Virus record (IMG/VR): IMGVR_UViG_2534681835_000037
Coordinates: 1 to 23,837 of that record
Reading direction: 5' to 3' (one strand)
DNA from: a virus
Lineage: Duplodnaviria > Heunggongvirae > Uroviricota > Caudoviricetes
DNA: 23,837 nt
Shown here: piece by piece, positions 7,344 to 10,202 of the stretch
How the letters are laid out: every line of letters begins with the position of its first letter
How positions within the stretch are numbered: the stretch's first letter is position 1
Program-made: the position numbers and the translations under genes
The notes under the pieces: model-generated
Seen by the model: the letters and a program-made list of their open reading frames with translations, nothing else
The model's database searches: none
What the model was told of the DNA's origin: nothing

Positions 7344-8501
7344 ATGACCACACTCAAAGAACTCAAAGAAGAGCTTGCTCAGATTCAAGATGAAAACGCG
7401 AAAAATAGAAAAAAAGCTGAAATTGCAGCCTTGGTCACTTCTGCCGACAACGAGATTAGGCTTGCTCAGAGAAATATTGGATACAACGTACGTGAATGGA
7501 CCGTTGAATTAATTGTACAAAAGTATGGCAATAATCTTGAAACTGACAAAAACGAACTTTTTATTCCTGATTATCAACGCGATTACAAATGGGATATCAA
7601 AACAGCCTCTCGATTCATCGAAAGTATATTATTAGATTTTCCAATCCCGTACCTCTACATCTCCGACGTATTTAATGAAGATCCTGAGTTGGATGGTCGT
7701 GTAGAAATTATTGACGGTTCACAAAGGATTCGCTCAATTTACTACTTTTGGAACAATCAGTTTGAATTGAAAGACTTAAAAGAACTCAAAAGTTTAGAGG
7801 GCTTCAAATTTTCAGATCTTTTGGCTAGCCGCCAGAGGCGATTTTTAAGGGCATCACTAAGATTTATTGAATTGAAAGGTGATGTTGAGGAGCAACATAG
7901 AAGAGATTTATTCGAAAGAATAAATTCAGGTGTTAAGAGACTGGAAGCGATGGAGGTTAGACATGGTTCAGATGCGGCCACTTCAATTTTCTATAGGGAT
8001 GTTGTGACTCCTTGCTCAACAAATCCACTTTTCGCTAGTCTAGCTCCATTATCAGACCGGAAACGTTCGAATGGCGATCATCGTGAGTTAGTTTTGAGAT
8101 TTTTTGCATACTTAAATGATTTAGAAAATTATAAGGGTTATGTCGCTCCTTTTATTGACAATTATCTTAATGTTCAGGCCGAAAGGGTCACACAACAAGA
8201 TGTAGACAAATTTAAACATGATTTTGAAAGCATGCTTGCTTTTGTAGATGCTCATTTCCCTATGGGGTTTAAAAAGACACCAACAAGCAAAACCACCCCC
8301 CGTGCTAGATACGAAGCCATAGCAGTGGGAACTGCTCTTGCCTTAAAAGCCAATCCACATCTACAGGCTCCGGTTATTCCTGTAGGAGACTGGCTGTTTG
8401 GGGAGGAATTTGAAACCATAGTTACTGCTGATAGTGCCAACAACACCAGCCAACTCAAAAACAGAATATTTTATGTCAAAGATAAATTATTAGGAATGTA
8501 A
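7344..8501 (+). CDS. DUF262 (ParB-like nuclease/NTPase superfamily) domain protein
   Basis: 385 aa; contains the DUF262 signature motifs as I recall them: PDYQRDYKW and IIDGSQRIRS (DGQQR-like). No His-Me/DUF1524-type motif seen in the C-terminal half. AGGA RBS; AT-rich relative to the phage backbone. Confidence 0.8.
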   Translation: MTTLKELKEELAQIQDENAKNRKKAEIAALVTSADNEIRLAQRNIGYNVREWTVELIVQKYGNNLETDKNELFIPDYQRDYKWDIKTASRFIESILLDFPIPYLYISDVFNEDPELDGRVEIIDGSQRIRSIYYFWNNQFELKDLKELKSLEGFKFSDLLASRQRRFLRASLRFIELKGDVEEQHRRDLFERINSGVKRLEAMEVRHGSDAATSIFYRDVVTPCSTNPLFASLAPLSDRKRSNGDHRELVLRFFAYLNDLENYKGYVAPFIDNYLNVQAERVTQQDVDKFKHDFESMLAFVDAHFPMGFKKTPTSKTTPRARYEAIAVGTALALKANPHLQAPVIPVGDWLFGEEFETIVTADSANNTSQLKNRIFYVKDKLLGM

Positions 8502-8503
8502 CT

Positions 8504-9193
8504 ATGAGTTTGATTGATTTAAGAGATGAATACGAAGAAAGAGCAAGAGATATTATGGAATTGCTTTCTCTTGCGTCATCTTTAGAGGCTCAGACTCAGC
8601 AGTTAGATCAGCAAACGCATAAAGATGAAATAGAATCAAATACCCTTAGGGTTAACATTTTAAAATCATCCGTGCACATGATGCTGTACAATCAGGTTGA
8701 AAACACTGCCAGAGGATGCATTGAGTCAATTTATGACCATTTGCAAGATAATGAAGTAAATTACGCATCACTCAGGGAGAAATTCCAAGTAAATATCTTG
8801 CACCGTATCATTTCAGATAATGAATCGGGAAAATCTCTTTATCAAAAAATTGGTTCCGATATATCTAAAAGGATCATTTCAGCCTCATTAAACATACGTA
8901 AAGAATTCAATGGTAATGTTTGCAAGTCTGTATTGCACAAAATAACACAAGCTTACGGAATAACTGTTGCAAACTCACCAGAGTGTAGAAATGGTGTTGA
9001 CTTAGATTTACTTAAAGATATCAGAAATGAGCTGGCACATGGAAGTACCAGCTTTTCTAAAAAAGGTCAAATAGACCCTTTAGAAGAAGTCAAATCGAGG
9101 TCAGAAAGAATTGATCTATATTTGCGTTTATTAATCAACTCAACAGAAAATTATATTACCTCTAACGGGTATTTATCCCCTCAACATGTCTGA
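8504..9193 (+). CDS. HEPN-like domain protein (putative RNase), translationally linked to the DUF262 gene
   Basis: 229 aa; start 2 nt after the DUF262 stop; C-terminal R-x4-H motif (DIRNELAHG) typical of HEPN active sites in a largely helical protein. Assignment is from motif and context only. Confidence 0.55.
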   Translation: MSLIDLRDEYEERARDIMELLSLASSLEAQTQQLDQQTHKDEIESNTLRVNILKSSVHMMLYNQVENTARGCIESIYDHLQDNEVNYASLREKFQVNILHRIISDNESGKSLYQKIGSDISKRIISASLNIRKEFNGNVCKSVLHKITQAYGITVANSPECRNGVDLDLLKDIRNELAHGSTSFSKKGQIDPLEEVKSRSERIDLYLRLLINSTENYITSNGYLSPQHV

Positions 9194-10202
9194 TAAATGT
9201 TTCCCCTATTATCTGACCAATTATAGGGGGAACAGCATTTCCAATCATTGTCCCCAATTTTTGGAATGAAAAAGGCGTCTCCTTGTCAAGGAATTTATAA
9301 TCCATTGGAAAGGATTGCAAAATCGCAGCTTCACGCAAAGTTATGGCGCGATTTTGCTCAGGATGGCCAAATCGTCCATTTCCATATCCATAACACTGGG
9401 TAGTTATCGTAGGGCTAGTATCGTCCCAAACCATCCGTCCATAAACGCTTTTATAGGTAGCACCTGAATTCTTTTTATGACAGTCTGCTCTAATTTCTTC
9501 AGGCCAGTCATCCCACGTACCACCAGGTAAAGAATGCATGATTCGTTTAAGATTGATATCCATCAATTTAGGCGAACGATGCAAGGGATCGCTTTCCAGC
9601 TTCTCACCTGCCCCTACTTTTGGCAACCTACCAATAGCATCCTTAACAGTAACTTTACGGCTAACTTTTTTTTGATCAAGGCTGATCGGCCCCAATTGGG
9701 AACCAATTAGAATTAATCTACGTCTATTTTGAGGTAAGCCATACTCAGAACATCTTACAACGTCGTACCACAAATGATATCCAAGAGTCTTTAATGCACT
9801 AACAAACCCTTCAAAAACCTTATGGTTTCTAAGTTGAGGAACATTCTCCATCGTCACAAGCTCTGGCATGACATCACTTACAAGCCTTTGAAACTCATAT
9901 AACAAACGCCACTTTGTATCGTCTTTACGGCTATTTGGATTACGATACTTGGAAAACGGTTGGCAAGGAGCACATCCAGCAAGCAATCTAATATTTCCTT
10001 CCTTGAACATAGCAGACACATCGCAGGATTGCAGTTCTGTAACTGACTGATTAATGAACTGCGTTAAAGGATTATTGCTCTCAATAGCAAAACGGCAGGA
10101 TTCATCAATATCAATACCATGAGAAACCTCAATCCCGGCTTTTTTTAGCCCAAAAGTTAAGCCCCCCGCACCACAAAAAATGTCTACTGCCTGAATGTTC
10201 AC
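9162..10202 (-). CDS. DNA (cytosine-5)-methyltransferase
   Basis: 346 aa; canonical m5C MTase motifs in order: I FCGAGG, IV GCAPCQPFS, VI TMENV, VIII QNRRR; GTG start at 10202 with GGAG RBS; 3' end overlaps the HEPN gene 3' end by 32 bp (convergent). Confidence 0.85.
   Translation of the reverse strand: MNIQAVDIFCGAGGLTFGLKKAGIEVSHGIDIDESCRFAIESNNPLTQFINQSVTELQSCDVSAMFKEGNIRLLAGCAPCQPFSKYRNPNSRKDDTKWRLLYEFQRLVSDVMPELVTMENVPQLRNHKVFEGFVSALKTLGYHLWYDVVRCSEYGLPQNRRRLILIGSQLGPISLDQKKVSRKVTVKDAIGRLPKVGAGEKLESDPLHRSPKLMDINLKRIMHSLPGGTWDDWPEEIRADCHKKNSGATYKSVYGRMVWDDTSPTITTQCYGYGNGRFGHPEQNRAITLREAAILQSFPMDYKFLDKETPFSFQKLGTMIGNAVPPIIGQIIGETFIRHVEGINTR

Follow-up and report, generated by a model that had tools for sequence, protein, structure and literature searches.

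A DUF262–HEPN gene pair convergent with a C5-cytosine methyltransferase in the Q-to-lysis region of an Escherichia coli prophage: a conserved, candidate restriction-modification-like anti-phage cassette

The window analysed here, a stretch of 23,837 nucleotides, comprises positions 1 to 23,837 of the IMG/VR virus record IMGVR_UViG_2534681835_000037 (Caudoviricetes), and it is 99.9% identical to a prophage of Escherichia coli O111:H8 strain 8E. Between its Q antiterminator gene and its NanS-p and lysis genes lies a cassette of three genes, which encode a DUF262 protein, a HEPN protein and a C5-cytosine (m5C) DNA methyltransferase (MTase). This trio is a widely conserved mobile unit; the arrangement is found again and again, in well over 100 independent loci, and this recurrence and purifying selection together exclude chance. 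We propose, with a probability of about one half, that the cassette, a moron in the Q-to-lysis hotspot, acts as a single restriction-modification-like (R-M-like) module against phage, in which DNA methylation would gate the activity of the DUF262–HEPN pair. The proposal builds on what the analysis shows: which domains the proteins contain, that their catalytic motifs are intact, that all three genes are under purifying selection, that the trio is deeply conserved, and that the MTase family has R-M-type partners elsewhere.

The cassette is compact. Calling of open reading frames (ORFs) places the DUF262 gene at 7344-8501 (+ strand, 385 residues), the HEPN gene at 8504-9193 (+ strand, 229 residues) and the MTase gene at 9162-10202 (− strand, 346 residues, with a GTG start). 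A gap of 2 nt (8502-8503) separates the DUF262 and HEPN genes, and the HEPN and MTase genes overlap 3' to 3' by 32 bp (9162-9193). Coordinates, strands, gap and overlap are exactly those given in an earlier note on this DNA, and the GC profile and the Pfam matches of the neighbouring genes likewise bear out its description of an AT-rich cassette between Q and the NanS-p/lysis genes: GC content is 0.35-0.42 over 5500-10500, compared with 0.50-0.56 in the flanks. The DUF262–HEPN pair lies on the + strand, with the Q, MTase and lysis genes all opposite to it.

The three genes always occur together in E. coli. Of 5,426 complete genomes, 107 carry the pair; the MTase is found in these 107 and in no others, and neither an orphan pair nor an orphan MTase exists in the set. 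Of these copies, 73 are at least 99% identical, and the remaining 34 represent a variant (85% nucleotide identity in the pair, 91% in the MTase) that sits in another lambdoid prophage, again in the Q-to-lysis slot; the replication genes there are different ones, and the Q-family gene has diverged. The ratios of nonsynonymous to synonymous divergence (dN/dS) between the two variants, 0.053, 0.054 and 0.081 for the DUF262, HEPN and MTase genes, respectively, indicate that all three are under purifying selection.

The same geometry, with the DUF262 gene followed by the HEPN gene and then by the convergent MTase gene, is found in prophages of Yersinia mollaretii (in the Q slot) and Salmonella bongori, in a Tn7-like element of Pseudoalteromonas, in integrase islands of Vibrio and Providencia, next to McrBC in a Pseudomonas genome, in the post-gene-A region of the P2-like coliphage P2_4B2, and in nine Moraxella catarrhalis phages (Mcat24-32). 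A megablast search of the phage collection found no sequenced phage carrying the cassette at the DNA level, only the common flank; a protein-level search then revealed the phage copies. A broader genome scan, taking one genome per species and classifying loci with custom hidden Markov models, gave 79 loci that span Gamma-, Beta- and Deltaproteobacteria, Cytophagales, Lentisphaerae and many Cyanobacteria. The HEPN gene lies directly 3' of the DUF262 gene in 72 of these, with contig ends accounting for five of the seven exceptions. Sufficient downstream sequence is available for 62 of the genome loci; 30 of them have a convergent MTase of the trio family, three have an m5C MTase elsewhere or of another type, and one retains an MTase remnant. 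Linkage is complete in viral contigs: in every one of the 62 DUF262-anchored loci that have enough flanking sequence, the HEPN and MTase genes are both present. The co-occurrence that the earlier note had put forward as a check thus extends far beyond the one locus, to other E. coli genomes, other phyla and viral contigs. All deep branches of a neighbour-joining tree include MTase-positive loci, and the DUF262 and HEPN proteins co-diverge closely (r = 0.89).

Does the MTase belong functionally with the pair? A reciprocal scan, anchored on the MTase in viral contigs, bears on this point; the best 80 of 509 relatives were kept, of which 78 had enough flanking sequence. Adjoining DUF262 and HEPN genes are present in 42 of the 78 loci (in one of them only DUF262 is seen before the contig ends), and in about 15 of these 42 the genes form a co-directional MTase–DUF262–HEPN series of abutting ORFs. 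In the other 36 loci the MTase family adjoins a different partner: a GHKL-ATPase of about 660 residues in 21 loci (for example L203, L188 and L174; PADLOC REase_II, E about 1e-92), a DISARM SNF2 helicase in five (for example L201; PADLOC DrmD/DrmA, E = 0), a NERD-UvrD helicase in two (for example L178; PADLOC RTasNERD-Hel, 5.5e-66) and a Druantia component in one (L210; PADLOC DruF). The MTases beside these other partners are 46-56% identical to the enzyme of the window. Given these alternative partners, the MTase family seems to be a self-marking component that different R-M-type systems reuse, with DUF262–HEPN standing in the position of the restriction or effector component. The MTase is therefore probably a functional partner of the pair. 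The earlier note had offered two readings of the MTase, as the self-protection partner or as an independent anti-restriction gene, and the viral linkage and the alternative effector partners shift the evidence towards the first.

The MTases themselves are notably uniform across trios. In a set of 36 trios they form a single family with pairwise identities of at least 44%, and with a mean of 55% they are the best conserved of the three proteins (DUF262 49%, HEPN 32%). The variable region, which contains the target recognition domain (TRD), is conserved to the same degree as the catalytic core in these 36 trios, which suggests that their MTases share one conserved specificity. The window's enzyme matches Pfam DNA_methylase at 9.5e-54 and carries all the canonical m5C motifs, including FCGAGG, PCQ, ENV, QNRRR and GNAVPP. 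Motif I (FCGAGG) is encoded at 10161-10178 and the catalytic Cys80 of the PCQ motif at 9963-9965, both on the − strand, and the core motifs are invariant across 13 homologues. PADLOC profiles that match over the full length are MTase_II (1.6e-87), DrmMII (4e-85) and DruM (4.9e-73); NCBIfam places the protein only in the dcm superfamily, and sequence matches in the PDB, confined to the core motifs, are to Dnmt1 catalytic domains, 3g7u and M.HaeIII. The possibility that the enzyme duplicates Dcm (CCWGG) was rejected, as E. coli Dcm shares the core motifs only and has a dissimilar TRD.

The DUF262 protein is a DUF262/ParB-like NTPase protein that matches Pfam GmrSD_N/DUF262 (PF03235) at 1.1e-25, and its 385-residue translation contains the motifs PDYQRDYKW and IIDGSQRIRS. 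Three motifs do not vary among 27 homologues, the most distant of which are 53% identical: QRxxxW (within YQRDYKW, 7575-7592), DGxQR (DGSQR, 7713-7727) and FxxxN (FERIN, 7911-7925), all on the + strand. The conserved motifs of DUF262 proteins are nucleoside triphosphate (NTP)-binding or NTPase motifs. The best PADLOC match is to NsnA (5.6e-46, over about 300 residues), followed by PD-T4-2_A (PDLC04027; 4.3e-27), for which residues 72-336 align with positions 52-313 of the 363 in the profile; the GmrSD-type profiles (HEC-05/06, SspE and Orf5) align solely to residues ~65-156. An AlphaFold2 model, with a predicted local distance difference test (pLDDT) score of 81, finds its best PDB folds in BrxU, SspE and the ParB/Noc CTPases. 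The architecture is NsnA-like, with a ParB-DUF262 domain followed by a C-terminal helical domain of a kind that has been described as DNA-binding, and the protein is predicted to be a DNA sensor. No DUF1524/His-Me domain is matched in Pfam at E<0.1 in either the DUF262 or the HEPN protein, and the Pfam search detects no nuclease domain in the 385-residue protein. The earlier statement that DUF1524 is missing, with a HEPN protein in its place, therefore stands, the HEPN gene being in the effector position.

The HEPN protein belongs to the MAE_28990 family (Pfam HEPN_MAE_28990, PF18737, 3.8e-16; HEPN_RiboL-PSP, 6.7e-8), so that profile searches agree with the assignments first proposed for both members of the pair. 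Its RNELAH sequence, encoded at 9023-9040, corresponds to an R174-x4-H179 motif, and in 82 representatives that share only 20-37% identity the residues Y62, N63, E66, G137, R174, L177 and H179 are invariant. The Rx4H catalytic motif is thus kept throughout, and the protein is predicted to be an RNase effector. The family is large, with 1,292 cluster representatives at E<=1e-3 in an exhaustive profile search; among the best 150 of these, almost all are 200-265 residues long. The window protein has no match to PADLOC PD-T4-2_B (PDLC04028) at E<0.1, and none to NsnB or NsnC in PADLOC. Within the set of 82, two members match PD-T4-2_B weakly at E<0.01 and one matches REase_II (E=0.009); a Vibrio homologue matches PD-T4-2_B at 2.4e-4. 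NCBIfam has no family for either the DUF262 or the HEPN protein, and the RefSeq product names are 'DUF262 domain-containing protein', 'MAE_28990/MAE_18760 family HEPN-like nuclease' and, for the third gene, 'DNA cytosine methyltransferase'.

The nearest relative with experimental support is PD-T4-2 ('DUF262, HEPN') from E. coli ECOR65, which protects K-12 against T4 and whose deletion sensitises the native strain (Vassallo et al. 2022, PMC9519451). Our comparison uses the PADLOC profiles and the HHpred table of that paper, in which PD-T4-2B falls into two Pfam families, HEPN_RiboL-PSP and HEPN_MAE_28990, both of which also match the window HEPN protein (PMC9519451). Like the pair described here, PD-T4-2 is found in E. 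coli as a two-gene operon, DUF262 followed by a small HEPN gene, and its DUF262 profile matches the window protein. There are differences, however, in gene content and in sequence. The functional PD-T4-2 clone (1,540 bp of ORFs) has no methyltransferase, whereas the cassette has a linked MTase in Proteobacteria and viral contigs; the PD-T4-2 HEPN protein is shorter, with a 168-position profile compared with 229 residues in the window; and the window HEPN protein is not matched by PD-T4-2_B, while its DUF262 protein is nearer to NsnA than to PD-T4-2_A.

All three components had in fact been listed together. Table 1 of Anantharaman, Makarova, Burroughs, Koonin & Aravind 2013 includes a conserved bacterial operon of MAE_28990 HEPN, ParB and DNA methylase genes, in which the HEPN protein has an active Rx4-6H motif, and HEPN proteins linked to R-M systems are discussed there as PrrC-like second lines of defence (PMC3710099). 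The window has the HEPN protein, the adjacent ParB/DUF262 protein and the linked methylase, and we conclude that its cassette belongs to this MAE_28990 HEPN–ParB–methylase neighbourhood. The 2013 entry is a single line, with no name, experiment, prophage-hotspot context or analysis of the MTase family and MTase-less copies. The earlier note had not recognised the combination as a named system; that it is unnamed holds, but the trio was already listed (PMC3710099) and a two-gene DUF262–HEPN system is known in PD-T4-2 (PMC9519451). Reviews and the Menshen paper count PD-T4-2 among the DUF262 systems that have no DUF1524 and describe it as uncharacterised. Literature searches based on domain names, system names and protein accessions found no experiments that characterise the trio, in agreement with the earlier view that it is not an already characterised system, and no mention of the RefSeq protein accessions or later mechanistic work on PD-T4-2.

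Other DUF262 systems share part of this design. SspABCD-SspE also combines a self-marking DNA modification with a DUF262 NTPase reader that controls a nuclease, and SspE is among the structural matches, but its mark is a phosphorothioate made by four proteins rather than m5C made by one MTase, and its effector is a fused DUF1524 DNA nickase rather than a separate HEPN protein. GmrSD and BrxU have an N-terminal DUF262 domain with the QR, DGxQR and FxxxN motifs, and BrxU is the best structural match; in contrast to the cassette, each is a single polypeptide with a DUF1524 His-Me nuclease that attacks modified DNA and has no cognate methylase. Menshen (NsnABC) has an NsnA-like DUF262 sensor with a helical DNA-binding domain, uses RNase-type effectors and sometimes adjoins lone methylases. 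The cassette, however, lacks both the NsnB ABC-ATPase and NsnC (inPIN plus toxin); no ATPase gene lies downstream of the sensor in 7344-10202, where the HEPN gene follows directly. The MTase profiles (MTase_II, DrmMII, DruM) and the convergent layout of modification and restriction genes, which is typical of type II systems, recall type II R-M, DISARM class 2 and Druantia type II, but no DNA endonuclease, helicase or PLD domain can be recognised in the cassette, whose predicted effector is an RNase. Its proteins do not make up a complete PD-T4-2 or Menshen gene set in PADLOC v2.0.0. The V. cholerae WASA systems, considered since the window's DUF262 protein has a V. cholerae homologue of 61% identity, proved to be unrelated, WonAB being an ABC-ATPase with a PD-(D/E)xK nuclease and GrwAB being of the GmrSD type.

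How might such a cassette work? In the model that we favour, the m5C MTase, expressed from its own promoter, would methylate a fixed motif on host and prophage DNA as a mark of 'self'. The DUF262 protein, a ParB-like NTPase with a helical DNA-binding domain, would read the status of the DNA, as DUF262 domains do in SspE, GmrSD and BrxU, and on meeting foreign, unmarked DNA it would switch on the HEPN protein encoded in the same operon. The HEPN protein would then cut RNA, and the resulting growth arrest or abortive infection would halt the phage. Methylation would thus gate the pair, with unmethylated DNA as the trigger; the HEPN protein would be the RNA-cleaving component, and the cassette as a whole would protect its host against phage. 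Precedents also favour the model: PD-T4-2 defends against T4 with proteins of the same two domain families, Ssp links DNA modification to a DUF262 sensor-nuclease, and the 2013 survey placed this operon with the HEPN systems that are linked to R-M (PMC3710099). The exchange of cargo in the Q-to-lysis slot, described below, likewise counts in its favour.

Several observations weigh against this model. First, about 28 of the 62 genome loci with enough downstream sequence have the pair with no m5C MTase within 4-5 kb. Most of these belong to one cyanobacterial clade, as does most of the MTase-negative state in the tree (the cyanobacterial loci concerned fall in L043-L094, for example L063, L068 and L071), and ten downstream ORFs from seven such loci are housekeeping genes (for example those encoding CobN, carbamoyl-phosphate synthase and ABC1 kinase) except for one that has no Pfam match. 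Because this clade keeps the pair alone, the pair is not universally dependent on a linked MTase. Second, MTase and DUF262 proteins co-diverge less closely (Pearson 0.74, Spearman 0.39) than do DUF262 and HEPN. Third, synonymous divergence (dS) between the two E. coli variants (window 7344-10202 compared with L002 9001-11862) is 0.42 for the MTase gene, 1.0 for DUF262 and 0.84 for HEPN, a difference suggestive of recombination within the cassette, close to where the genes converge. Fourth, in P2_4B2 (Peduovirus, LR595873; L165 2021-3041, − strand) the MTase gene carries one frameshift, in a GG(G) run around residue 227, and the other two genes of the trio are unbroken; the frameshift could be a real inactivation, phase variation or a sequencing error. 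Finally, PD-T4-2 worked in K-12, and was not toxic there, as a two-gene clone with no MTase (PMC9519451), and the characterised DUF262 sensors respond to modified, not unmodified, DNA.

Many of these points are what would be expected if DUF262–HEPN were instead a self-contained abortive infection system resembling PD-T4-2, either independent of methylation or dependent on modification in the manner of type IV enzymes, with the MTase a separate gene that benefits the mobile element, for example by shielding its DNA against type II enzymes of the host or as an orphan methylase with an epigenetic role. We consider this the strongest competitor, though clearly the less likely account. It draws on the sufficiency of two genes in PD-T4-2 and on the large cyanobacterial clade with the pair alone, on the recognition of modified bases by known DUF262 sensors and the targeting by PD-T4-2 of T4, whose DNA is hypermodified, and on an MTase that has its own promoter-like element, recombines apart from the pair, and is kept in all mobile-element copies and lost in chromosomal copies flanked by housekeeping genes. 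What it leaves unexplained is why a single MTase family abuts the pair across phyla and types of element, including the Tn7-like and McrBC-adjacent loci, why co-directional MTase–DUF262–HEPN operons exist, why the same MTase family partners REase_II, DISARM and Druantia components, and why 5,426 E. coli genomes contain not one orphan pair or orphan MTase.

A two-pronged R-M system along the lines of Anantharaman 2013 seems improbable. Here the ParB-like DUF262 protein would itself be a DNase acting on unmethylated DNA, and the HEPN protein a PrrC-like back-up suicide arm whose RNase activity is released once restriction is blocked. The 2013 paper does call the partner a 'ParB nuclease' and proposes the same logic for R-M-linked HEPN proteins (PMC3710099), and all of the evidence for MTase linkage applies equally to this scheme. 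The conserved DUF262 motifs, however, are those of NTP binding and hydrolysis; GmrSD, BrxU and SspE cleave by means of a fused DUF1524 domain that the cassette lacks, and the 385-residue protein has a C-terminus of the DNA-binding type and no detected nuclease domain. An addiction module, toxin-antitoxin-like or a selfish R-M system, that mainly stabilises the prophage or island rather than opposing phage is very improbable: the restriction of the cassette to mobile elements in Proteobacteria, the HEPN toxins of several toxin-antitoxin systems and the convergent layout typical of selfish type II R-M would fit it, but the related PD-T4-2 defends against phage and its native strain tolerates its deletion, MTase-less copies persist among housekeeping genes, and the phage defence and moron hotspots in which the cassette sits (the Q-to-lysis slot and the P2 post-gene-A slot) fit defence.

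Putative expression signals lie at the two ends of the cassette. Upstream of the DUF262 gene, the segment 7241-7343 (+ strand) has the features of a promoter and 5' untranslated region, with a perfect −10 element, TATAAT, at 7272-7277, a palindrome, GCGTACGC, at 7285-7292 in the leader, and an AAAGGA ribosome-binding site ahead of the ATG at 7344. The segment is kept in the E. coli variant and in the Yersinia and S. bongori copies of the cassette. On the other side, the spacer between the MTase start and the Q stop (10203-10265, − strand) has a TATAAT −10 element at 10234-10229 and a GGAG ribosome-binding site at 10212-10209. Its block TATGTGTATATAATACCAGGAT...GGAGAATCTTGTG is kept in the S. 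bongori locus (L006), which has no Q gene upstream, and the block TATGTGTATATAAT...GGAG...GTG 5' of the MTase gene is likewise conserved in the S. bongori copy; the spacer is probably the MTase's own promoter. A consensus promoter scan gave 14 matches compared with 13.6 in shuffled sequence, which is no excess, and it did not call the segment upstream of the DUF262 gene. As the scan did no better than shuffled sequence, both promoter assignments are drawn from cross-species conservation alone, and 7241-7343 is best described as a putative promoter.

The left edge of the cassette is marked by a bidirectional hairpin resembling an intrinsic terminator, CCGCTCAGCGGCGG (7210-7239, both strands), with a T-run on the − strand and TTT on the + strand; a terminator scan calls it in both directions, at 7220-7233 (+) and 7231-7219 (−). 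A segment of about 115 bp (7200-7316) that includes the terminator, TATAAT and GCGTACGC is common to mEp460, SfII/SfIV and Stx2a phages, and in mEp460, SfII and Stx2a_1447 it precedes unrelated genes on the opposite strand. Shiga toxin (Stx) phages carry stx in this slot. The Q-to-lysis slot is thus a hotspot at which cargo is exchanged behind a conserved promoter segment. Other cargo in the same slot includes a gene for a 308-residue protein in mEp460_4F5 (L014 2657-3583) and genes for 343- and 179-residue proteins in Stx2a_1447 (L015 2633-4196). The cargo genes of mEp460 and Stx2a_1447, which sit between Q and the adenine-methylase/stx region, have no PADLOC match, and in Pfam only a weak, sub-threshold match for the 179-residue Stx2a_1447 ORF (E=0.0011); they are candidates for defence or moron cargo. 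Within the leader, just 3' of the conserved TATAAT, the palindrome GCGTACGC overlaps a second, ACGCGT (7285-7294, + strand). Both the E. coli variant and the Yersinia copy retain these palindromes, the S. bongori copy retains them in part (GCGTCAGC), and they could represent an operator or an RNA hairpin.

The orientation of the cassette within the late region allows a further, more tentative suggestion. Q-dependent late transcription would run in the sense direction through the MTase gene and antisense through the DUF262–HEPN operon. If true, the effector could be shut off while the prophage goes through its own lytic cycle, and progeny DNA would be methylated more strongly. The cassette may then be an R-M system that restricts without cutting DNA, in which a ParB-like NTPase clamp or sensor detects missing m5C at specific sites and the HEPN RNase brings about abortive infection, which would thereby be tied to host-controlled modification and be subject to Q-dependent silencing; we regard this fuller scheme as speculative, and less likely than the methylation-gated module as such.

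The window has several further features of note. The Q antiterminator gene lies at 10266-10634 (− strand; Pfam Phage_antitermQ, 3.3e-47), and a NanS-p-type esterase is encoded at 4618-5853 (− strand; Pfam DUF1737 and SASA esterase, 4.9e-11 and 9.2e-11). The latter ORF has 411 residues in the window compared with a 648-residue DUF6645 protein in the 99.9%-identical RefSeq record, its frame being broken in the window by a few indels relative to that record. An iraM-like anti-adaptor gene, annotated in the near-identical RefSeq record, lies at 6127-6453 (+ strand) within the AT-rich Q-to-lysis region, on the strand opposite late transcription, as a second moron beside the cassette; the iraM product is an RpoS stabiliser in K-12. 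Rfam and tRNA scans find no RNA genes within the cassette. Elsewhere in the window, Rfam identifies a C4 antisense RNA (15468-15555, − strand, 75 bits) and isrK (15577-15653, − strand, 62 bits), a P1/P7-type antisense immunity element near the prophage Rha/antirepressor genes.

We conclude that the cassette is a PD-T4-2-like pair with a dedicated, putatively self-marking methylase, a variant within a neighbourhood already described and related in architecture to an experimentally validated system, and not a system of a new kind. DUF262 sensing, HEPN-mediated abortive infection and self-marking by a methylase are each known separately, but no studied system joins all three. The finding also points to a gap in annotation, since the PD-T4-2_B, NsnB and NsnC models of PADLOC v2.0.0 miss the HEPN protein despite its 1,292 cluster representatives and the presence of the trio in 2% of complete E. 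coli genomes. With a length of about 3 kb and a single-gene modification module, and carried in E. coli prophages that include those of many ST131 clinical isolates, the cassette should be easy to study and could reveal whether a DUF262 sensor reads the absence of m5C and whether an R-M-type system uses an RNase instead of a DNase as its restriction arm. It could also inform how PD-T4-2, which has been tested against phage but is mechanistically obscure, works.

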